NCBI GenBank assembly: GCA_038244535.1
Contig: JBBRTJ010000001.1
Coordinates: 10,861-74,860 of the forward strand
From: Acidimicrobiales bacterium
GTDB taxonomy: Bacteria > Actinomycetota > Acidimicrobiia > Acidimicrobiales > Ilumatobacteraceae
Length of the DNA: 64,000 nt
Direction of reading: 5' to 3'
Shown: positions 5,691 through 42,107 of the stretch, piece by piece
Position numbering within the stretch: position 1 is the stretch's first letter
How the letters are laid out: the number at the start of each line of letters is the position of its first letter
Notes under the pieces: generated by a model
What the model was told of the DNA's origin: nothing
The model's input: only the letters and a program-made list of their open reading frames with translations
Databases searched by the model: none
Position numbers and translations under genes: made by a program

Positions 5691-6329
5691 TCAGCCGAAG
5701 AGCGAGAACGCGAGTCCGAACAACGCGAGGTGGTAGGTGATCATGATCGCCACCTCGGCCCTGGCGAAGGGCTGCACGAAGCGGTTGACGGCGAGCAGCG
5801 TGTCCGAGGCGAAGAAGACCGCCGCTCCGGCGATGCCCCACCACACGCCGTGACTGAAGGCGGCGACGACCATGGCCGAGATCACGAGCAGGTACATCGA
5901 CACAGGAAGGCCGAGTTGGGGCGAGCCGGTGAACACGCTGCGCAGGATCCGGCGACCGACGATGAGGATGGCCACGGCGACCACGAGGATGCCGACGTTG
6001 GCCAACGCAACGTTCGGATGGCCCGGCAGCAGGAAGCCGACGACGAAGGCGATGTGCCCGATCAGGAACGCGCCCAGGCCGACGACGAACAGGTCAGCGG
6101 GGAGCATGAGCGCGATGTCACCGATGAGGCAGAACGACAGGCCGATCACGAACGCCGTTCGCATCGAGGTCGACGTCGGATCGACCGCCAACGCGACCCC
6201 GAGGATCAGCGCCGTCACCGTGGGCTTGGTGATCCACTCGACGACCTGGCGATGTGCCGTCCGCGACCACCAGTTCGCCAGCGCGAAGGGCACTGCGAGC
6301 CCACACAGCAGCCACGCCGTCTCTGTCAT
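5691..6329 (-). CDS. YhhN-family (lysoplasmalogenase-like) membrane protein
   Basis: 212 aa, multi-TM, YhhN-like pattern. It overlaps the upstream ligase gene by 4 nt. Confidence 0.7.
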   Translation of the reverse strand: MTETAWLLCGLAVPFALANWWSRTAHRQVVEWITKPTVTALILGVALAVDPTSTSMRTAFVIGLSFCLIGDIALMLPADLFVVGLGAFLIGHIAFVVGFLLPGHPNVALANVGILVVAVAILIVGRRILRSVFTGSPQLGLPVSMYLLVISAMVVAAFSHGVWWGIAGAAVFFASDTLLAVNRFVQPFARAEVAIMITYHLALFGLAFSLFG

Positions 6330-7906
6330 CGTCGTTCGCCTTCCCCCGCCACTGTGGTGCGACCCGCCTCGGACTCTGACGCCGGAGCGTAGGGCTCGGC
6401 GTCAGCGCCTGCCGAGATCGTTTCCGCCCAGTTCCGGCGCAGCACCTCCTTCTCGACCTTGCCGAGGGCGTTGCGCGGCAGCTCGGTGACGACCACGACC
6501 TGCTTGGGGACCTGGAACCCGGCGAGGCGGACCCGGGCGGCCTCGCGCACCTCGGCATCGTTGACGGCCTCACCGATCGAGGCCACGACGACAGCGACGA
6601 CCCGCTCGCCGAAGTCATCGTCGGGGACACCGATCACGGCCGACTCGGCGACGCCGGGCAGCGAGTCGAGCACTGCCTCGACCTCGCTCGGGTACACGTT
6701 GAGGCCGCCGGTGATGATCAGGTCCTTCGATCGACCCACGATCGTCAGGTAGCCGTCGGCGTCAAACGTGCCGAGGTCACCGGTGCGGAACCAGCCGTCC
6801 GCGGTGAACTCGGTGGCGGACAGCTCAGGCCGGCGCCAGTAGCCAGCGAACACGTTCGGACCCCGCACCTCGATGCCGCCGACTTCACCGGCCGCGACCG
6901 GACCTCCGGCGGGATCGGCGATGCGCACCTCGACACCGGGGAGTGGCAACCCCACCGTCCCTGGGCGTCGGTCACCGTCGAGGGGGTTCGAGGTGTTGAT
7001 CAGCGTCTCGCTCATCCCGTAGCGCTCGAGCACGACGTGACCGGTGCGGAGGCGAAGCTTCTTGTGCGTCGAGGCGAGCAGCGGCGCCGACCCTGACACG
7101 AACAGGCGGATCGAACGGCATGCGTCAGCGTCGAAGCGGGGATCGGCGAGCAGGCGCGTGTAGTGGGTCGGGACGCCCATCATCACCGTTGTCTGCGGCA
7201 GGGCCCCCAGCACCGCGTCAACGTCGAAGGCGGGCAGCAGGACCATCGCGGTGCCGTTGCGCAGCACGCAGTGCACCGCAACGAACAACCCGTGCACGTG
7301 GAACAAGGGCAGCACGTGCAGCAGCACGTCGTGGGGCCCGAACCCCCATGCGGCGTGCAGCGCGTTGGCGTTGGCCACGAGGTTGGCGTGGCTCAGCAGC
7401 GCGCCCTTCGGACGACCGGTCGTGCCGCTCGTGTAGACGATCGCGGCCAGATCGTCGGGCTGGGCTTCGTGGTCATCCTCGCGCCGCGGGCCAGCACCGG
7501 CCAGCGCCGCCAGCGATCCTCGACCGTCACCGTCGAGCGTCAGCACCCGGCAGGCAACGGGGAGGGACGACCGCCGAGGATCGACGACGACCAGCGCAGG
7601 TTCGGCGTCGCTGACGAGGTGGCCCACCTCGACCTCGGTGTATGCCGTGTTCAGCGGGATGAACACCGCGCCGGCGCGAACGCAGGCCAGGTGCAGCAGC
7701 AGGAAGCTCGGCGACTTGTCGAGCTGCACCACCACCCGATCGCCTGGCCGCACGTCGGCGGCCCGCAGGGCGGCGACAAGGCGACCGGCCCCGTCCCAGG
7801 CATCGCCGTAGGTGAACGTGGGCCCACCAGGCACGGTGACGAACGGGCCTGCCGGGTTGCGGTCGAGCCCGATGCGGATGAGGTCGAGCAAGGTGCGCGG
7901 CGCCAT
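6326..7906 (-). CDS. AMP-dependent acyl/malonyl-CoA synthetase
   Basis: ORF 6326..8212 trimmed to ATG 7906 (MAPRTLLDL...). Adenylate-forming motifs YTSGTTGRPKGA, GYLTIVGRSKD, LPRNALGKV. Confidence 0.88.
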   Translation of the reverse strand: MAPRTLLDLIRIGLDRNPAGPFVTVPGGPTFTYGDAWDGAGRLVAALRAADVRPGDRVVVQLDKSPSFLLLHLACVRAGAVFIPLNTAYTEVEVGHLVSDAEPALVVVDPRRSSLPVACRVLTLDGDGRGSLAALAGAGPRREDDHEAQPDDLAAIVYTSGTTGRPKGALLSHANLVANANALHAAWGFGPHDVLLHVLPLFHVHGLFVAVHCVLRNGTAMVLLPAFDVDAVLGALPQTTVMMGVPTHYTRLLADPRFDADACRSIRLFVSGSAPLLASTHKKLRLRTGHVVLERYGMSETLINTSNPLDGDRRPGTVGLPLPGVEVRIADPAGGPVAAGEVGGIEVRGPNVFAGYWRRPELSATEFTADGWFRTGDLGTFDADGYLTIVGRSKDLIITGGLNVYPSEVEAVLDSLPGVAESAVIGVPDDDFGERVVAVVVASIGEAVNDAEVREAARVRLAGFQVPKQVVVVTELPRNALGKVEKEVLRRNWAETISAGADAEPYAPASESEAGRTTVAGEGERR

Positions 7907-7910
7907 GGGC

Positions 7911-8930
7911 TCAACGATCGTCGACGAGGCGGCGGGCCTCGGCCACGAGGGCGATGGCCACGCGCAGGACGCTACCCCGAGCGGCGAACAGCCGATCGAC
8001 GTCGACGGGCGGGCCGTAGGCCGGATCGGCGAGGTGCGTGGCGTGCTCGAGCAGCGCGGGCGCAAGCCACTCGTACCTGACTGCAGCCGCGCACATCGCC
8101 AGCCGAACGACGCGCTCGTCGCCGGGCCAACCGACGGCGCGCAACCCCGCGAGGTACCGACGGTGCACGGTCTCGTCCAGCTCGGCCAGGCGGTCGATCG
8201 GCCAGGCGGCATCCAGACCGGCGTCGAGGAGCAGGTTGCTCGGATCCTCGCCGAGGGCGCCGACGCCCGTCAGCGCCCAGTCGATGAAGACCACGTCGCC
8301 GGTCGGACGACGGATGACGTTGCGGATCGACGCGTCGAGGTGAGCGACGGCCTGAGGGAACCGGGCCGCCACCGCGCACCACTGCTCGAGCTCGGCGGTC
8401 ATTCGGCAGAGGTCGGGGCGCAGCGCACCGAGGTGCTCGGCCACCACCGGCACGGCCCAGAGAGCGTCGTCATCGAGCAGTGAGCGCCGGAACGGCTTCG
8501 AACGCGGATAGGCGCACAGGACGTCGCGGCTGAGCCAGGCGTCGACGGCCCGGGGCTGGGGTGCCCCCTGGCTCCATCCCAACGCCTCGGCGGCAGCCCC
8601 GAGGTCGTCGAGGGTGAGCGCGCCGCCGGTGCGCCCAGCGACGTCCTCCAACTTGAGCTCGATGCCCTTTCGCTCCGAGCCCACGATGTCGAGCACCTCG
8701 GGCGCGCCGAGGCCGAGGCGGCGGGGGAGGTCGGAGCGGTAGACGAGCGCTTCGCGCTGCCAGTAGTTCCACGCCGTCGGCTCCTCCGACGCGATCCAGT
8801 GGTCCGGGACGTCGTGTCGTACGCCGATGGTCTTGTTGACGTAGGGCAGGCCGCGGTGCCAGTCCCGCCACACGCCGAGCGTGATCCCGTTCGAACGCTG
8901 GTGGACCAGTTCCTCTCGACGCCTGGCCAT
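7911..8930 (-). CDS. phosphotransferase-family protein (APH/choline-kinase fold)
   Basis: 339 aa. Kinase-like catalytic region VVFIDWALTGVGALGEDPSNLLLD. Confidence 0.7.
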   Translation of the reverse strand: MARRREELVHQRSNGITLGVWRDWHRGLPYVNKTIGVRHDVPDHWIASEEPTAWNYWQREALVYRSDLPRRLGLGAPEVLDIVGSERKGIELKLEDVAGRTGGALTLDDLGAAAEALGWSQGAPQPRAVDAWLSRDVLCAYPRSKPFRRSLLDDDALWAVPVVAEHLGALRPDLCRMTAELEQWCAVAARFPQAVAHLDASIRNVIRRPTGDVVFIDWALTGVGALGEDPSNLLLDAGLDAAWPIDRLAELDETVHRRYLAGLRAVGWPGDERVVRLAMCAAAVRYEWLAPALLEHATHLADPAYGPPVDVDRLFAARGSVLRVAIALVAEARRLVDDR

Positions 8931-30267: not shown

Positions 30268-31314
30268 GTGCACCTGTTCTGGTTCGTGCCGTCGATGGGC
30301 GACGAGGCTCGGCTCGGCGATCCCGGCTCCGCCCTCGCTCCAACCCTCGATCACCTCGTCGCCGTGGCGCGGACTGCCGAGGCCGCGGGGTTCGAGGGGA
30401 TGCTCGTGCCCACCGGCGAGCTGTGCCACGACGCCTGGATCGTGGCCGCCTCGCTCGCCCAGCACACCGAGAGCCTGAAGTTCCTGGTCGCCTTCCGACC
30501 GGGCTTCGTGAACCCCCCGGTGGCCGCCCGCACCGCCGCCACGCTCGACTGGCTCACCGGCGGGCGCGTGCTGCTCAACGTGGTCACCGGCGGCCACGAC
30601 CACGAGCTGGCCAAGGACGGTGACTTCCTCGACCACGACGGGCGGTACCGCCGCACCGCGGAGTTCCTCGAGCTCGTCCTGCGCAGCTGGCACGAACAGG
30701 GATGGGACCATGACGGCGAGTTCTTCAGGGTCGTCGACGGAGGCATCGCGCAGCGACCGGTGCAGCAGCCTCACCCGCGCATCTACCTCGGCGGCTCGTC
30801 CGACGCAGCCATGGATGCAGCCGCCCGCTTCGCCGACGTGTACCTGATGTGGGGCGAGCCGGTCGAGCGCATGGCGCCCCGTGCTGCGGCCGCCAAGGCA
30901 CTGGCGGCCTAGCGGTACGGCCGCACGCTCGACGTCGGCACGCGGTTCCAGCTCGTGGTGCGTGACACCGACGACGAGGCGCGGGCGGCCGCCGAGGACC
31001 TGGTCAGCCACATCTCCGAGGAGTACCGCGAGCGCATCCGCAGCCACGCCGACCGCACCGACTCCGAGGGGCAGCGGCGTCAGAACGAGCTGCGCTCGTT
31101 CGGCTCGGAGTGGCTGAGCGATGCGCTGTGGAACGGTTTCGCGCGGGCCCGCATGGGAGCTTCTGTCGCGCTCGTCGGCAGCGGCGAGACGGTCAAGGCC
31201 GAGCTCGACCGCTTCGTCGCCGCGGGCATCGACACCTTCATCCTGTCCGGTTACCGCCACGACGAGGAGGCAGAGCGCGCCGGACGGCTGCTGCTCCCGC
31301 TCGTCAACGAGTGA
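30268..31314 (+). pseudogene. LLM-class flavin-dependent monooxygenase (SsuD-like) interrupted by one in-frame TAG (30910..30912)
   Basis: ORFs 30268..30912 and 30955..31314 share a frame. The sequence across the stop (...AAAKALAA-TAG-RYGRTLDVGTRFQLVVRDTDDEA...) is contiguous with the LLM/SsuD fold. Confidence 0.75.
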
Positions 31315-34225: not shown

Positions 34226-34352
34226 GCACCCGCGCCTTGGACACGACCGGCAGCCCTCACTGAGCTCACCACGCGGCTCGGCTGTACCTCGGGGGGCGGG
34301 CCGCTGTTCTTCGGTTCACGGTTGTCGAGTTGCCGCGGCCGTCGGGCTGCGG

Positions 34353-35627
34353 TCACGGCTGAGGTGGCGTCCGGTCGCAGACGACTTGGTTCCGACCGTT
34401 GCTCTTGGCGCGGTACAGCGCTGCGTCGGCGCGTTGAAGGGTGTCGTGCAGGGCTCGGTGGTGCTCGGCTGCGCCGAGGCTGATGGTCACGCCGGCGACC
34501 ATGTTCGGCGAGCTCTCGACGACCAACTCGGCGATGGCGACGCGCAGTGCTTCGGCGCGGCCCGCCGCAGCGGCCAGGTCTGCTCCGGGCAGCAGAACGG
34601 CGAACTCCTCACCACCGAACCGGGCCAGAAGATCGATGGTTCGAAGGTGACTGGTGAGCGCGGCGCCGACTGCGCACAGCACGATGTCGCCACCGTCGTG
34701 ACCGTGAGTGTCGTTGACTGCCTTGAAGTGATCGATGTCGATCATCAGCACTGCCGCTGGCACATGATTGACCGCACATGCCTTCAACAGCCGATCGGCG
34801 CGAGAGTCGAAACCCCGACGGTTCGTCAGCTTCGTCAGCGGATCGGTGTCCGCCTCGCGCCGCAGGTCTTCCTCGCGACGCTGCATCTCGGTGGTGTCGC
34901 GGGTCACGATGATGAACCCTTCAGGTTCACCTTTCTCATCGACCACTGTCGAAATCATTGTGTCGGTGTAGAACGTTTCGCCTGGCGAACTGAGCGCCCA
35001 TCCCTCAGTGCGCCGCCACCCGGCGAATATCGCGGCGTCAAGAACGTCAGAGAGCCGTTCGACCGACACCACTTGGTCCAGAGGGCGGCCTACTGCTTGC
35101 GACGCTTTGAGGCCGAACAAGCGCTCACCAGATGCGTTCCACGAGTCGATGAGTCCAGCACGGTCGATGGTGTAGATCGCGTATTCGCGGACCATCTCGA
35201 CGATGAGGCGAATGCGGTCGCGTTCGTGGCTCAGCTCATGCTCGCGGTGCACCAGTTCCGTCACATCGCTGATCACGGCGACGTAGTAGCCCGGACGAGG
35301 TCGATGAACAGACACCTCTACCGTGGCGACGGTGCCGTTCACCTCGAGCCTCGAACGGTGGTTTGCCACTACCACGGTCCCGCCTTCGTCGGCCCTCACC
35401 AGCGCGCCGAGATCGGGCACCAACGGGGCGAGCAGAGTGAAGGCGTTGCCCATGACCGCCGACCCTACGAACGGGCTCAGCAACTGCACCGACATGGGGG
35501 TGGCTCGAGTCACGGATCCTGTCGAGTCGAACGCGACGACGCCGACAGGGAGCAGGTAGAGCAACTCGTAGAGCTCTTCGAGCTCATTGTTCAACGAGCC
35601 GGACCCAGACGGTTCGTTCAGGTCCAT
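34353..35627 (-). CDS. diguanylate cyclase with two PAS domains (PAS-PAS-GGDEF)
   Basis: 424 aa. DPLTKLTNRRGF, DIDHFKAVNDTHGHDGGD, active site RFGGEEFAV. Two PAS-like segments lie upstream. The ATG overlaps the PYP gene by 10 nt. Confidence 0.92.
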   Translation of the reverse strand: MDLNEPSGSGSLNNELEELYELLYLLPVGVVAFDSTGSVTRATPMSVQLLSPFVGSAVMGNAFTLLAPLVPDLGALVRADEGGTVVVANHRSRLEVNGTVATVEVSVHRPRPGYYVAVISDVTELVHREHELSHERDRIRLIVEMVREYAIYTIDRAGLIDSWNASGERLFGLKASQAVGRPLDQVVSVERLSDVLDAAIFAGWRRTEGWALSSPGETFYTDTMISTVVDEKGEPEGFIIVTRDTTEMQRREEDLRREADTDPLTKLTNRRGFDSRADRLLKACAVNHVPAAVLMIDIDHFKAVNDTHGHDGGDIVLCAVGAALTSHLRTIDLLARFGGEEFAVLLPGADLAAAAGRAEALRVAIAELVVESSPNMVAGVTISLGAAEHHRALHDTLQRADAALYRAKSNGRNQVVCDRTPPQP

Positions 35628-35977
35628 TGCACGAGGAGGAATCGTCGTGCGGCGTCGCGGCGCGTCAGCAATCGCAACCGCACTGAGGTCGGCTTCATCC
35701 GTAAGGTGAAGACGTAGTCAATGGTTGCATCGAGCTCACTCTCGGTCTCGAACCGATGCGCGACCATGAAGTTGTTCGTGCATGGGGCGACCTCACTGAA
35801 GAAAAGCCGACCGACGACTCGCTCCGGTGAAAGGCCAGAACGAGTCGACTCGGTTCGGTTGTACATGACAACACGATGATCGGCATCCATGGCAATGACA
35901 CCGAACGTGGTGTCCTGCAACTGAGAATCGGAGGATGAGGTCAACTGGTCGTACAGATCGATCTCATCGAACTCCAC
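35618..35977 (-). CDS. pyp: photoactive yellow protein (PYP) homologue
   Basis: 119 aa, GTG start. It aligns from memory to Halorhodospira PYP along its length: FGVIAMDADHRVVMYNRTE (Tyr39/Glu43 = Tyr42/Glu46), GRLFFSEVAPCTNN (Cys66 = Cys69), and YVFTLRMKPTSVRL. Confidence 0.85.
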   Translation of the reverse strand: MEFDEIDLYDQLTSSSDSQLQDTTFGVIAMDADHRVVMYNRTESTRSGLSPERVVGRLFFSEVAPCTNNFMVAHRFETESELDATIDYVFTLRMKPTSVRLRLLTRRDAARRFLLVQWT

Positions 35978-36010
35978 TGACGCAGCGTATCACCGGGGGA
36001 CGTCGGTGCA

Positions 36011-36038
36011 AGGTCCCGGTCATGAGGTCCCGGTCATG
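36011..36038. repeat. perfect 14-bp tandem duplication upstream of the PYP gene
   Basis: AGGTCCCGGTCATG at 36011..36024 is repeated at 36025..36038. Confidence 0.9.
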
Positions 36039-36344
36039 ATGGCCAGTGCTTGTTGACCACCACTGCCCGTGGGAGATCCCAGCGTTCCAGGGGTGCCGAT
36101 TGGTTGTTCGAACGTGAACAGATCGGGGCGACATCGATCAACTGCCCCACTGTGGGGTGGGCGGGGATCGCTCGCCGCGTGGCGAGCTGAGTCACTCGGA
36201 AGGCGACCGGATCATCGAGGCCCGGAACCGTTCCTCGATGGTCTAGCGCCGCGAATCGGCTGCGCTCCATCGGCTGTGACCACGGCTCGAAATGGGCGAA
36301 CTGGCCGAAGGCTCATCAGTCTCCAGCACCAGTCCGTCTGACCG

Positions 36345-38160: not shown

Positions 38161-39660
38161 GTGCAGCGTACGGTTCCCGCCATGAGCGTGACGACCACGG
38201 CCACCCCGCCGGCTCCCACGGTGGCGCCCCCGTTGCCCGACGGCCTCGTAGCCGTGGTGAAGCGTGAGTGCGCCACCTGCGTGCTGGTCACCCCGGTCCT
38301 GGCCCAGCTGGCCTCCGCACCGAGCGTGACGCTGTCGGTGTTCACCCAGGACGACCCGGACTTTCCGGATGGCATCAGCAGCATGCACGATGACGACCTC
38401 GCACTGAGCTGGCACCACGACATCGAGACCGTGCCCACGCTGCTGCGGGTAGAGGGTGGACGCGAGGTGGGCCGCATCGTCGGCTGGAGCCGCCCGGAGT
38501 GGGAGGCCTTCACCGGCGTCGCCGACCTCGGCCCGGGGCTGCCTGAGTGGCGGCCGGGCTGCGGTTCGCTCAGCGTCGACCCGAACCTGGCCGACGACCT
38601 CCGAGTGCGCTTCACCGGGTCGACCCTGCGGGGCCGGCGAGTCGAGCTGGCCAGCCTCGAGGACGAGTGGGAGGCGATGTTCGACCGCGGCTGGACCGAC
38701 GGCCTGCCCGTCGTGCCCCCCACCGAGGCCCGCGTGCTGCGGATGTTGGAAGGCACGACCCGCCACCCCCAGGACGTCGTTGCCATCGTGCCGCCCGACC
38801 TGGTCGCCGTCACGGTCGAGAAGGTCGCCGTCAACGCGGTGATGGCGGGCTGCAAGCCCGAGTACCTGCCTGTGGTGCTCGCGGCCGTCGAGGCCGCCTG
38901 CAACGACGAGTTCAACATCCACGGCGTGCTCGCCACCACGATGCCGGTGGGGCCACTGATCATCGTCAACGGGCCCATCCGCCGGGCCATCGGGATGAAC
39001 AGCGGCATCAACGTGCTCGGCCAGGGCAACCGGGCCAACTCCACCATTGGCCGGGCCTTGCAGCTCGTGATCCGCAACGTCGGCGGCGGACGGCCGAACG
39101 AGGTCGATCGCGCCACCCACGGCAACCCCGGCAAGGTCGGGTGGTGCGTCCCCGAGGACGAGGAGGGATCGCCGTGGACGCCGCTGTCGGTGGCCCGAGG
39201 GTTCCCGGCCGGTATGAGCACCGTGACGCTGTTCCCGGCCGAGGGCCCGCGGTGCGTGGTCGATCAGCTCGCCCGTGACGCCGGCCAGCTCGCGACCTCG
39301 TTCGCCGCCGCCCTGCGCACCGTGCACCACCCGAAGCTGCCACTCGGCTTTGACGCCGTGCTCGTCGTCGGCCCCGAGCACGCTCGCGTGTTCGCCGATG
39401 CCGGCTGGAACCGCGAGCAGCTCGTGGCCGAGCTCGACGCCCGCCTGCAGCTCCCCGGATCCGAGATCATCCGTGGTGCCGGGGGCATGGCCGAGGGGAT
39501 CCCCGAGCGCCTGCGCGACGCCACGCTGCCCAAGTTCCGCCCTGGCGGCCTCCTGGTGGTGCACGCCGGTGGCGGAGCGGGCCTGTTCTCGACCGTCATC
39601 GGTGGCTGGGCCAACGGCGCCATCGGGAGCCAGCCGGTCACCAAGGAGATCACCTCATGA
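38161..39660 (+). CDS. thioredoxin-fold N-terminal domain fused to an uncharacterised ~370-aa domain
   Basis: 499-aa ORF (ATG 38182 is an alternative start). KRECATCVLV CxxC plus a downstream ETVPTL cis-Pro loop give a Trx fold. I did not recognise the rest. Its stop overlaps the next start (ATGA at 39657..39660). Confidence 0.75.
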   Translation: MQRTVPAMSVTTTATPPAPTVAPPLPDGLVAVVKRECATCVLVTPVLAQLASAPSVTLSVFTQDDPDFPDGISSMHDDDLALSWHHDIETVPTLLRVEGGREVGRIVGWSRPEWEAFTGVADLGPGLPEWRPGCGSLSVDPNLADDLRVRFTGSTLRGRRVELASLEDEWEAMFDRGWTDGLPVVPPTEARVLRMLEGTTRHPQDVVAIVPPDLVAVTVEKVAVNAVMAGCKPEYLPVVLAAVEAACNDEFNIHGVLATTMPVGPLIIVNGPIRRAIGMNSGINVLGQGNRANSTIGRALQLVIRNVGGGRPNEVDRATHGNPGKVGWCVPEDEEGSPWTPLSVARGFPAGMSTVTLFPAEGPRCVVDQLARDAGQLATSFAAALRTVHHPKLPLGFDAVLVVGPEHARVFADAGWNREQLVAELDARLQLPGSEIIRGAGGMAEGIPERLRDATLPKFRPGGLLVVHAGGGAGLFSTVIGGWANGAIGSQPVTKEITS

Positions 39661-40178: not shown

Positions 40179-40262
40179 GCGGCGCGTATCTTGCCGCCGC
40201 CTACCGCCTCATGAACCGATGTGCGGGCACCCCCGTGCTCAGTCGACAAGGAGCGTGCTGTC

Positions 40263-42107
40263 ATGGGTTTTCCTGTTGCCGGTGGAGTTGGCCTGGCCAC
40301 GTGGACCGACGCGGCCGGAGCGGGCTCGCTTGTACCGGTTGACTACTTTCCCGGGTTGATACGGGACAGCGCGCAGCAGGCGTGGACGCAGTACCACGAC
40401 GACTTGGTGACGGCGCTGAGCAAGGAGCTCGGCATCGGCGACCTGGTCACGTCCGGCGTCACCTTGTACGACATCAACATCACGATCGCCCCAGACGTCT
40501 CGCTGAGCGTCGACCGCGACGGCAACGGTGACCTGTTGGTGACCCTGACCACGGGCGGATGCTCCATCACGGCGACGGCCACCCAACCGACAGCCCTCGG
40601 CAGTTGGGCCGACCCGCGGTTCTCCTTCGACTTCGCCCTCGACCTCACCTATCGCATCGACCTGCCGCCGACCACGGGGCCGGTGTCGGCCACCGGGTTC
40701 ACCGAGGTGCACGTCCTGTCGCCCCACATCGACTCGCACAACCTCGTCGCCGACGTGGTGATGTTCTTCAACTCGATCTGGGACCTGTTGAGCGGTGACG
40801 GGTTCGTGCAGATGCTGGAGCGCTGGATCGCCAGCACCGACTTCGCATCATTGGTGAACCCTCTGCTGCAACCGCTCAACGACAAGCTGACCGAGCTGGC
40901 GGGTCAGGGCTTCTGGTTCCTGAACGCCGTGATCGACCGGCTCGACGGTGGAGCGGGTGGCCTGCATGGCCTGAGCATCCCGGGTGCGCCGCAGGACCGC
41001 CTCGACGTGATGCTCCTGACCCAGGGCTACGACAACAGCGGCGTGATCACGGGCGACATCACCTGGCCCGCAGCGCTTGGTCGCCCTGTGCCGACAGGTT
41101 CGTTCGAGGCGGTGGCGCTCTCGAGCCAGGTGCTCGCCGACGCAGCTGCCGTCAGCATCGGGATCGCACTGGCCGACCCTCAAGCGGCTACCCGCCTCGT
41201 GCCCAAGGTCGAGGCGCCGGCGGGGACGACGTTCACGTCGGCCGACCGGGTGCCGCTCAACCCGCAGGCACTGCCGCTGCGCCAGTCGATGCTCATGCGA
41301 GCGATGAACGTCGACGACGTGATGCTGAACCCGCAGCCGATGCCGCCGGGCGTGGATGTGACGACGGTGGCGAGTGACGTCGAGGCACAGAGCATGGCCG
41401 CCGACGTGCGCGCCGGAGTCGCCTCACGGTTCATCACGGCCCTCGGGAGCGCCAACTTCGCGGCGCTCGCCACGCTGTTCGAGCAGGGGCCGATCACGTT
41501 CGACATCCACGGGATCGTCACGCTCCCGGGCGAACCCGGCGCGCTGTTCGGCAGCGAGAAGCACGTTGGTCAAGTGGCACGCATCTCGGTGCTCGACGAC
41601 GCCACCACCTGTCGACGCCACTACGTCCTCGACCAGGTGCCGATCGGGCCGAAGTTGCCCATGCGGTGCGATCTCGCGCCGGGTTGGGTGTGGTCGGGCG
41701 GGCAGAGCGTCGCCTGCTCCCCCGACGGCTGGGACGGCTCCGTCACCGTCGGACCAGCGGTCGACTTCAGCGCTCGCATCCGCCCCCACGACCACGTGAG
41801 CTTCGAGACCGTCCGCGAGGTGCACGAGGAGTCGAGGTTCGCCGTCAACGCTGTGCGCCAGTTCGCCGCCTCGTCGACGTTGGCGCAAGCGGCCGTCGAG
41901 ATGCCGGTATCAGTCGAGATGCCGGTATCAGCGGCGATCTCCACCGAACGCGTCGTCTCCATCCCTGTCCGCAACACCGTCTCGGTGGTGAGCGAGCACG
42001 GCGCGGTGATCGCCGAGGCGCTCGTGCGTCACGATCCGTCGGGGGCCGGAGTCGTGCCGAGCATCGACTTCACGGTCGCCGCCTTCACCGCTCCCATCAT
42101 CCGTTAG
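40263..42107 (+). CDS. hypothetical 614-aa protein, no recognised domains
   Basis: ORF 40221..42107 trimmed to ATG 40263, with AAGGAG 9 nt upstream. No signal peptide or TM is apparent. Contains an in-frame tandem VEMPVS-VEMPVS. Confidence 0.75.
   Translation: MGFPVAGGVGLATWTDAAGAGSLVPVDYFPGLIRDSAQQAWTQYHDDLVTALSKELGIGDLVTSGVTLYDINITIAPDVSLSVDRDGNGDLLVTLTTGGCSITATATQPTALGSWADPRFSFDFALDLTYRIDLPPTTGPVSATGFTEVHVLSPHIDSHNLVADVVMFFNSIWDLLSGDGFVQMLERWIASTDFASLVNPLLQPLNDKLTELAGQGFWFLNAVIDRLDGGAGGLHGLSIPGAPQDRLDVMLLTQGYDNSGVITGDITWPAALGRPVPTGSFEAVALSSQVLADAAAVSIGIALADPQAATRLVPKVEAPAGTTFTSADRVPLNPQALPLRQSMLMRAMNVDDVMLNPQPMPPGVDVTTVASDVEAQSMAADVRAGVASRFITALGSANFAALATLFEQGPITFDIHGIVTLPGEPGALFGSEKHVGQVARISVLDDATTCRRHYVLDQVPIGPKLPMRCDLAPGWVWSGGQSVACSPDGWDGSVTVGPAVDFSARIRPHDHVSFETVREVHEESRFAVNAVRQFAASSTLAQAAVEMPVSVEMPVSAAISTERVVSIPVRNTVSVVSEHGAVIAEALVRHDPSGAGVVPSIDFTVAAFTAPIIR
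41895..41930 (+). repeat. perfect 18-bp in-frame tandem duplication
   Basis: GTCGAGATGCCGGTATCA at 41895..41912 is repeated at 41913..41930. Confidence 0.9.

Follow-up and report, generated by a model that had tools for sequence, protein, structure and literature searches.

A photoactive yellow protein–diguanylate cyclase gene pair in an Acidimicrobiales genome, and a PAS-like domain that recurs directly after pyp

A downstream partner for the photoactive yellow protein (PYP) has been sought since the 1980s. A pyp gene that overlaps a diguanylate cyclase gene, the two together being called the cassette below, is described here in an Acidimicrobiales bacterium (Ilumatobacteraceae; assembly GCA_038244535.1, contig JBBRTJ010000001.1). 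The window, that is, the whole stretch of DNA analysed, is 64 kb long, and its host is in keeping with an earlier note on this DNA, which had spoken of an actinobacterial-type genome. The SufB protein encoded in the window falls into a 90%-identity cluster whose names are Acidimicrobiia or Acidimicrobiales bacterium.

The closest described systems are the pyp-GGDEF pairs of clade C. Clade C PYPs are "often found adjacent to" GGDEF proteins, with Actinobacteria among the listed phyla (Xing et al. 2022, PMC9664959), and in a survey that also lists Actinomycetes, 29 of the 113 predicted operons with pyp have a GGDEF gene behind it (Dohmen et al. 2025, PMC12826048). The actinobacterial entries in the supplements of both papers are three Actinomycetes, Geodermatophilus, Nocardioides and Pseudonocardia, and the class Acidimicrobiia is in neither of these two published PYP lists. 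The earlier note had taken the arrangement to be undescribed. This was mistaken, since pyp-GGDEF operons, clade C PYPs beside cyclases and actinobacterial PYPs have all been published (PMC9664959, PMC12826048). Like the published pairs, the locus presented here has a single-domain PYP with the equivalents of Tyr42, Glu46 and Cys69 (numbering of the Halorhodospira halophila protein, Hhal PYP); it retains Met100 but has lost Phe92 and Trp119. The GGDEF gene lies immediately downstream, as in those pairs, where it often overlaps pyp and where blue-light control of cyclic di-GMP (c-di-GMP) was proposed. It differs from them in its host, a member of the Acidimicrobiia, and in the retention of Phe96. 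By itself, the new locus is one more pyp-GGDEF cassette, in a class absent from the published lists, and adds little.

Other systems share part of the same logic. In Idiomarina loihiensis, as cited in PMC12826048 and PMC9664959, a free-standing PYP is found beside a diguanylate cyclase and blue light reduces biofilm; the Idiomarina PYP, however, belongs to clade A (PMC9664959). In Ppd of Thermochromatium tepidum and Ppr of Rhodospirillum centenum, PYP input is likewise coupled to c-di-GMP or kinase output, but each is a single polypeptide made of PYP, a bacteriophytochrome and GGDEF/EAL or a histidine kinase, whereas the cassette consists of two genes, has no phytochrome and places a PAS-like domain, called X below, at the N-terminus of the cyclase. 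The PYP of Rhodobacter capsulatus (Rc-PYP) binds PBP, a 142-aa dimeric protein (helix then sheet) encoded beside pyp (bioRxiv 10.1101/2021.06.01.446672). This is the sole case in which a PYP was biochemically shown to bind a small protein encoded by a neighbouring gene, which is the logic proposed here for PYP and X, although PBP lacks an enzymatic output domain and is not homologous to X. Finally, in the CetB/CetA system of Campylobacter, as discussed in PMC9664959, a stand-alone PAS sensor signals to a separately encoded effector; unlike in the cassette, the cofactor is flavin adenine dinucleotide and the effector is a chemoreceptor.

The PYP homologue and the overlapping cyclase gene

The pyp gene (35618..35977, minus strand, as are all features of the cassette) opens with a GTG codon, a start backed by aligned relatives that begin at the same residue, and encodes a 119-aa PYP homologue of the clade C type (MEFDEIDLYD...LLVQWT). 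The model TIGR02373 (photo_yellow) matches residues 3-117 of the 119 with an E-value of 2.6e-23 and 82.4 bits, against 27.7 bits for the best generic PAS model (Pfam PAS). In the PDB, the top sequence matches (E 1e-16 to 1e-13) belong without exception to PYP or Ppr-PYP; the best is the PYP domain of Ppr (1mzu, E 1.2e-16), Halorhodospira PYP is also among the best, and the first non-PYP match comes at E > 0.5. An AlphaFold2 model built on 52 sequences (pLDDT 88.9, pTM 0.85) superimposes on 2PHY with a TM score of 0.90 and a root mean square deviation of 2.0 Å over 122 columns, N-terminal cap included. When this model was searched with Foldseek, the first 38 matches were all PYP or PYP-derived (Ppr-PYP, FAST), and ordinary PAS domains reached a TM score of 0.70 at most. 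Judged by sequence and by predicted structure, the product of this open reading frame (ORF) is a true PYP-family protein, and the earlier note was right to read it as a PYP along its full length.

The chromophore-binding residues were confirmed at the coordinates given before. In the alignment to Hhal PYP, Cys66 (codon 35780..35782), which lies in the motif VAPCT, is the equivalent of Cys69, the p-coumarate thioester site, and the stretch Tyr39-Asn-Arg-Thr-Glu43 (35849..35863, in MYNRTE) corresponds to Tyr42...Glu46, the hydrogen-bond partners of the chromophore phenolate. Residue conservation was counted over 196 non-redundant PYP relatives. The equivalents of Cys69 and Glu46 are found in 196 of 196 and that of Tyr42 in 194, the remaining two having Phe; loss of this triad in orthologues, which had been named beforehand as telling against a PYP, was not seen. 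Ser47 and Leu49 of the window PYP, aligned with Hhal Thr50 and Arg52, had been named correctly in the earlier note. They are common in the family: position 50 is Ser in 118 and Ala in 77 of the 196 relatives, position 52 is Leu in 180, and Leu52, like Ser47 and Leu49, is published as a consensus across the PYP family (PMC12826048). Ser50 and Leu52 are family-typical residues and no oddities.

The rest of the pocket is also kept. The window PYP has the equivalents of Ile31, Phe62, Val66, Ala67, Pro68, Cys69, Thr70, Phe96 and Met100, and among the relatives Ile or Val31, Phe62, Phe63, Val66, Ala67, Pro68, Thr70, Tyr94 and Met100 are kept as well. Phe92 is replaced by Ile and Trp119 by Phe or Tyr, with Met100 conserved. 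This combination agrees with clade C as described by Xing et al. (PMC9664959), a description from which the retained Phe96 departs in part. A related locus, L046, encodes a Nocardioides rubriscoriae protein that is labelled clade C in Data Set S3 of the same study (Xing et al. 2022, PMC9664959). With such a pocket, the window PYP is predicted to bind p-coumarate through a thioester at Cys66. By the trend in PMC12826048, Ser50 would place its absorbance maximum at a blue-shifted value close to 434 nm.

Protein searches returned dozens of homologues at 63-89% identity, one of them annotated as Ilumatobacteraceae, and the genomic loci closest to the cassette are metagenome-assembled genomes (MAGs) of Acidimicrobiales and other Actinomycetota. 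The PYPs of Burkholderia and Caballeronia and that of N. rubriscoriae (WP_170286145) are 50-60% identical to the window PYP, in line with clade C, whose members group with PYPs of the Burkholderiales type. Several PYPs of this subfamily carry the PGAP label "phosphonate transporter", which is a misannotation.

The pyp and cyclase genes overlap by 10 nt (ATGGACCTGA, 35618..35627), the pyp TGA lying at 35618-35620 and the cyclase ATG at 35625-35627, as was read directly and as the earlier note had stated. The closest relative, the Acidimicrobiales MAG L002, has the identical 10-nt overlap. It follows from this tight overlap that the two genes are co-transcribed and probably translated at coupled rates.

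The cyclase (34353..35627) is a 424-aa protein of the order X (PAS-like)-PAS-GGDEF, in which Pfam recognises GGDEF with 142 bits and PAS_4 with 38.9 bits and in which the catalytic motifs are present. X spans aa 1-135 (35223..35627) and is a divergent N-terminal domain of predicted PAS fold and a candidate PYP-docking module. It is followed by a second, canonical PAS domain at aa 138-248 (34884..35216; Pfam PAS_4, PAS and PAS_9) and by the GGDEF catalytic domain at aa 259-414 (34386..34853), which covers Pfam positions 1-161 of 161 with E 1.6e-41. The active-site motif GGEEF was read directly at aa 338-342 (34602..34616). An RxxD I-site, RTID, lies five residues before it at aa 329-332 (34632..34643; RTID-LLARF-GGEEF, found with the expression R..D.{5}GGEEF). 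The signatures DPLTKLTNRR, DIDHFKAVND, GHDGGD, GGEEF and ADAALYRAKSNGR are all there. Among 48 orthologous partners, 44 have GGEEF and 33 the RxxD I-site. By its motifs the enzyme is catalytically intact and is predicted to be a diguanylate cyclase; a Pfam scan found no PHY or GAF domain in either protein of the cassette.

Domain X and the gene after pyp

The earlier description of two PAS domains and a GGEEF site stands for the site and, by Pfam, for the second PAS domain; the N-terminal one is PAS at the level of predicted fold only, and is not obvious in sequence. A Pfam search with X (residues 1-135) gave no match. Its AlphaFold2 model, which rests on merely 10 sequences (pLDDT 77.8, pTM 0.68), has PAS topology, with a five-stranded antiparallel sheet and flanking helices, preceded by a helix at 10-25 and followed by a linker helix at 123-133. 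The top Foldseek matches of this model are all PAS domains (WalK, FixL, FlrB, CitA, LOV-HK and PYP) at E <= 1e-4 and TMq 0.45-0.59. Likeness in sequence is weak: hhalign gave 68% over 56 columns against PYP and 14% over 105 columns against the second PAS domain. The slight preference for PYP over generic PAS bears on the idea of X as a degenerate PYP paralogue. In an alignment of the fused PYP+X chain, MAFFT aligned the X homologues with the PYP half, a misplacement that is a sign of similar PAS cores.

Word-indexed protein searches recovered one protein with X alone and nine with an X profile, mostly fragments. An exhaustive phmmer search through 1.84 billion cluster representatives yielded only 216 proteins with X, which in nearly every case occupies residues ~5-130. 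Among the 107 that were scanned, GGDEF was present in 42, HATPase in 13, EAL in 9, SpoIIE in 8 and MarR in 1.

For the genomic context, 80 related loci (designated by L numbers) were gathered using two motifs of this PYP subfamily. An X-homologous domain opens the gene directly after pyp in ~76 of the 80, across at least nine phyla, and the conserved LxFLYxxPVG motif of X begins 11-78 nt past the pyp stop in 76 of the 80 partner ORFs. The partner starts mostly overlap the pyp stop (-4, -8, -10, -11, -14) or follow it by 1-4 nt. Behind X, PAS-GGDEF is found in ~50 loci, the GGDEF gene following pyp on the same strand and without a gap. Other outputs behind X in the gene after pyp are HisKA/HATPase in several loci, SpoIIE, GAF-SpoIIE, PAS only, or nothing further. 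In addition, two independent natural fusions of the type PYP-X-PAS-GGDEF were found, one in Tagaea sp. (L047:9341-11008) and one in a 558-aa protein (P0166).

The distances among PYPs rise and fall with those among X domains (Mantel r 0.66, p 0.001). The PYP clades of a distance tree follow the type of output, which argues that the PYP-X pair is inherited as a unit. The PYPs with X-SpoIIE partners form a second actinobacterial lineage, without cyclase partners; this pairing suggests a light input into partner-switching phosphatase and sigma-factor circuits. The main texts of PMC9664959 and PMC12826048 make no mention of a shared partner domain or of SpoIIE partners, and SpoIIE is present in the neighbour columns of Data Set S3 (Xing et al. 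2022, PMC9664959). The regularity of pyp followed by X across phyla thus appears to be new.

From these comparisons we tentatively propose, as a suggestion that falls a little short of probable, that X is a dedicated PYP-docking PAS domain which forms with clade C PYP a modular split photoreceptor, and that it was domain-shuffled into at least four outputs (GGDEF, EAL, histidine kinase and SpoIIE/PP2C) in at least nine phyla, including two actinobacterial lineages. The comparative result on X is worth more than the locus itself, as signal transfer from free-standing PYP has a single biochemically shown partner, PBP. If the proposal is true, X would be a general, sequence-recognisable partner module for the PYP field, and the pair would offer optogenetics a naturally transferable light-controlled protein pair. 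Cultured hosts with the same module are Burkholderia sp. PAMC 28687, Caballeronia, Nocardioides rubriscoriae and Tunturiibacter.

PBP itself was considered as a relative of X. The comparison was made in 32 Rhodobacteraceae-type pyp loci (L084-L115), the PBP orthologue being picked by size, acidity and adjacency. A conserved acidic protein of ~141 aa, which probably represents the PBP family, lies directly upstream of the Rc-type pyp in 28 of the 32 (e.g., L092:2547-2972). The hidden Markov model (HMM) of X had no match in the 32 loci and hhalign against the 141-aa neighbour gave 0.7%; the identity of X with R. capsulatus PBP was hence rejected.

Several loci show further arrangements. In L055, a sister Tagaea locus to the fusion, PYP and X are encoded by two separate genes with a 4-nt overlap, so that fusion through loss of a stop codon looks easy. 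Three Acetobacteraceae MAGs (L009, L012 and L021) have two pyp genes, and a separate X gene stands behind each of them; the tandem order (at ~10000-13500 in L009) is pyp1, X-PAS (~380 aa, no output domain), pyp2 and X-PAS-GGDEF, and a TAL-like gene with the lyase motif discussed below is found 1.5-2 kb upstream. In L078:1919-5099 and L082:234-2196, the X-PAS-GGDEF gene is followed by a second X gene that carries GGDEF-EAL, hence one PYP may serve both a cyclase and a phosphodiesterase. In MAGs of Acidimicrobiales, Ilumatobacter and Actinomycetes (L029:10218-11504, L069:10354-12009 and L071:5205-8123), PYP is paired with X-SpoIIE or X-PAS-GAF-SpoIIE-HATPase_c_2. The ORF upstream of one X gene (L118:1-657) encodes the C-terminal domain of an acyl-CoA dehydrogenase joined to the last 50 residues of a GGDEF domain and is probably a chimeric metagenome assembly.

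Proposed light control of the cyclase and competing explanations

With moderate confidence, the two genes are read as a blue-light sensing cassette in which p-coumaroyl-PYP would bind X and gate the synthesis of c-di-GMP. In PYP, Cys66 would bind p-coumarate through a thioester, and Tyr39 and Glu43 would form hydrogen bonds with this chromophore; PYP would dock non-covalently on the N-terminal, PAS-like X of the dimeric cyclase. Blue light would isomerise the chromophore and produce a partly unfolded signalling state, which would alter the PYP-X contact. From there, the signal could pass along the linker helix behind X (aa 123-133), cross the second PAS domain and shift the geometry of the GGDEF dimer, so that the rate of c-di-GMP synthesis changes, in either direction. 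The RxxD I-site would add product inhibition. That the chromophore is loaded, that PYP binds X directly and that light governs the cyclase are all predictions from sequence.

Several points weigh against this scheme. The score of 82.4 bits with TIGR02373 is below the equivalog cutoff of 143, so that the check asked of a PYP-specific model, to score higher than generic PAS, came out in favour of PYP but under that cutoff; it should be noted that TIGR02373 recovers merely ~20% of PYP homologues (Xing et al. 2022, PMC9664959). The cyclase may instead start at an alternative TTG 23 nt past the pyp stop. The correlation between PYP and X distances is what would be expected for any co-inherited neighbouring genes. 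A reverse check, starting from X-first contexts, was mixed: among the four informative ones, two have pyp in the operon, a third is preceded by a GGDEF gene in a short contig, and the last, a frameshifted X, has no pyp within 3 kb. Finally, the binding of PYP to X is drawn from gene order and fusions only.

In a first rival explanation, PYP is co-expressed with the cyclase but does not act through X, which would then be an ordinary homodimerisation PAS domain, while PYP contacts the second PAS domain, GGDEF or an unlinked partner. N-terminal PAS domains often dimerise and the Foldseek matches of X include the dimeric PAS domains of FixL and WalK; moreover, the two X-first contexts without pyp immediately upstream and a PYP-X contact deduced by comparing sequences leave room for it. 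X nevertheless follows pyp whatever the output, even in proteins that lack the second PAS domain and GGDEF, its family is small and almost always N-terminal, and the natural fusions place PYP directly ahead of X. We consider this explanation unlikely, although it survives better than the two that follow.

The second explanation concerns the chromophore, to which the remaining points against the cassette as a blue-light sensor also belong. The PYP homologue would in this case not be a p-coumarate photoreceptor but an apoprotein, a carrier of another ligand or a redox sensor acting through Cys66, and the cassette would answer a chemical or redox signal. Since no member of clade C has yet been characterised (PMC9664959), chromophore, absorbance and photocycle are assumed, and redox sensing was proposed for some methylobacterial Ppr-PYPs (Xing et al. 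2022, PMC9664959). The ASGDL motif of the 4-methylideneimidazole-5-one (MIO) cofactor, which marks histidine, phenylalanine and tyrosine ammonia-lyases (HAL/PAL/TAL), was not found within the 64-kb window. The sole AMP-binding (adenylate-forming) enzyme in the window is encoded by the ORF 6326..8212 (minus strand), ~28 kb from the cassette. Its candidacy as p-coumaroyl-CoA ligase (pCL) was rejected, as it belongs to the malonyl-CoA synthase subfamily (694.7 bits against a cutoff of 558). The absence of TAL and pCL nearby is thus as the earlier note had reported it.

Such an absence is common. TAL is found in just 5-10% and pCL in ~30% of pyp neighbourhoods, TAL thus missing from 90-95% of them, and p-coumarate may be taken up (PMC9664959, PMC12826048); given this rarity, the lack of both in the window is no strong argument against a p-coumarate chromophore. 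In five loci of the subfamily (L009, L021, L028, L039 and L073), pyp has a MIO-motif lyase gene at a distance of 1.5-2 kb. On plasmid 1 of Burkholderia sp. PAMC 28687 (L120, NZ_CP014508.1 43325-50549), the set is complete: the annotated order on one strand is aromatic amino acid ammonia-lyase, PYP, X-type cyclase and EAL protein, and an AMP-binding ligase gene comes next on the other strand; X in this cyclase scores 147 bits. Besides these subfamily members that adjoin ammonia-lyase and AMP-ligase genes, the entire p-coumarate pocket is conserved in the window PYP and its model, including the N-terminal cap, matches holo-PYP with a TM score of 0.90, which makes a function other than p-coumarate photoreception improbable. 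Acidimicrobiales relatives, moreover, probably stem from aquatic or soil metagenomes exposed to light. Burkholderia sp. PAMC 28687 is a cultured isolate from an Antarctic lichen.

Origin and surroundings of the cassette

The composition of the cassette stands out from the window. The GC content at third codon positions (GC3) is 0.70 in pyp and 0.76 in the cyclase gene, against 0.82-0.95 in the other credible genes of the window and ~0.9 in the neighbours, and a low-GC, low-GC3 island (34450..36300, with GC down to 0.57-0.65 from ~34.6 to 36.3 kb, against ~0.70) coincides with the two genes. The lower GC3 noticed earlier in both genes is thereby borne out, together with a dip in GC across the cassette. 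L002, the closest genomic relative, encodes a PYP 84% identical to that of the window; its similarity is confined to 34329-35999 of the window, and the DNA on either side of this part in L002 has no counterpart anywhere in the 64 kb. In other hosts the GC3 of the cassette equals that of the flanks, and the GC of the window cassette, ~0.62, is like that of the lower-GC hosts L002-L004 (0.63-0.66). In the distance tree, the window PYP falls into one group with five further copies, four from Actinomycetota and one from Gemmatimonadales, and every copy in this group is linked to X-PAS-GGDEF. Relatives are also found on 16 large plasmids or chromids.

The anomalous GC and GC3, together with the fact that L002 shares nothing but the cassette, make a recent transfer likely. 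The cassette is thus likely a recent acquisition in a high-GC Acidimicrobiales genome, as the suggestion of horizontal acquisition in the earlier note had it, and its donor was probably a lower-GC Acidimicrobiales relative and not a proteobacterium. It appears as a case of recent lateral movement within Actinomycetota. A third explanation sees in the cassette a newly arrived passenger, poorly expressed or decaying, that has no function in its host. Its atypical composition, the unrelated metabolic genes around it and a consensus promoter that went undetected upstream of pyp in a scan limited to the sigma-70 consensus speak for this reading. It is nevertheless very improbable, since neither reading frame is broken and no catalytic or pocket residue is missing, an identical copy comes from an independent run, and there are the dozens of homologues mentioned above.

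The non-coding region upstream of pyp (35978..36344, minus strand), presumed to hold the promoter, contains a 14-bp tandem repeat and a CCCCGGTGATAC box before the start codon. The repeat is perfect and lies at 36011-36038, 34-61 nt upstream of the pyp GTG; it reads AGGTCCCGGTCATG twice on the plus strand, that is, CATGACCGGGACCT twice on the gene strand. L002 does not have it and shares just CCCCGGTGATAC immediately before the start. The repeat may serve as an operator or promoter element, or it may be the scar of an insertion. A 78-aa ORF in this region (36034..36270) has no Pfam match and no conservation, and was therefore treated as non-coding. An Rfam scan of 33.8-37.0 kb found nothing, and terminator-like matches near the cassette are no more frequent than expected by chance. 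Signs of mobile elements at the borders of the island are weak: neither a tRNA nor an insertion sequence-like ORF was noticed between the genes that flank it, and a single inverted repeat of 19 nt with 89% complementarity (34259-34277 and 36174-36192) brackets the low-GC cassette, with one arm 76-94 nt past the cyclase stop and the other ~200 nt upstream of pyp; its significance is doubtful, since other chance pairs in the region are equally good.

The flanking genes have no link to light or signalling and encode an S9 prolyl oligopeptidase, a ferredoxin, a luciferase-like monooxygenase, a MauE/DoxX protein, a flavin reductase and a protein of the metallo-beta-lactamase (MBL) fold. Two further ORFs, 38161-39660 and 40221-42107 (both plus strand; 499 and 628 aa), have a strong GC3 bias and no Pfam match at E <= 1e-4. 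The luciferase-like monooxygenase is spread over two ORFs on the plus strand, 30268-30912 and 30955-31314, the first of which covers Pfam positions 1-211 of 314; this split may reflect a frameshift, a pseudogene or a sequencing error.

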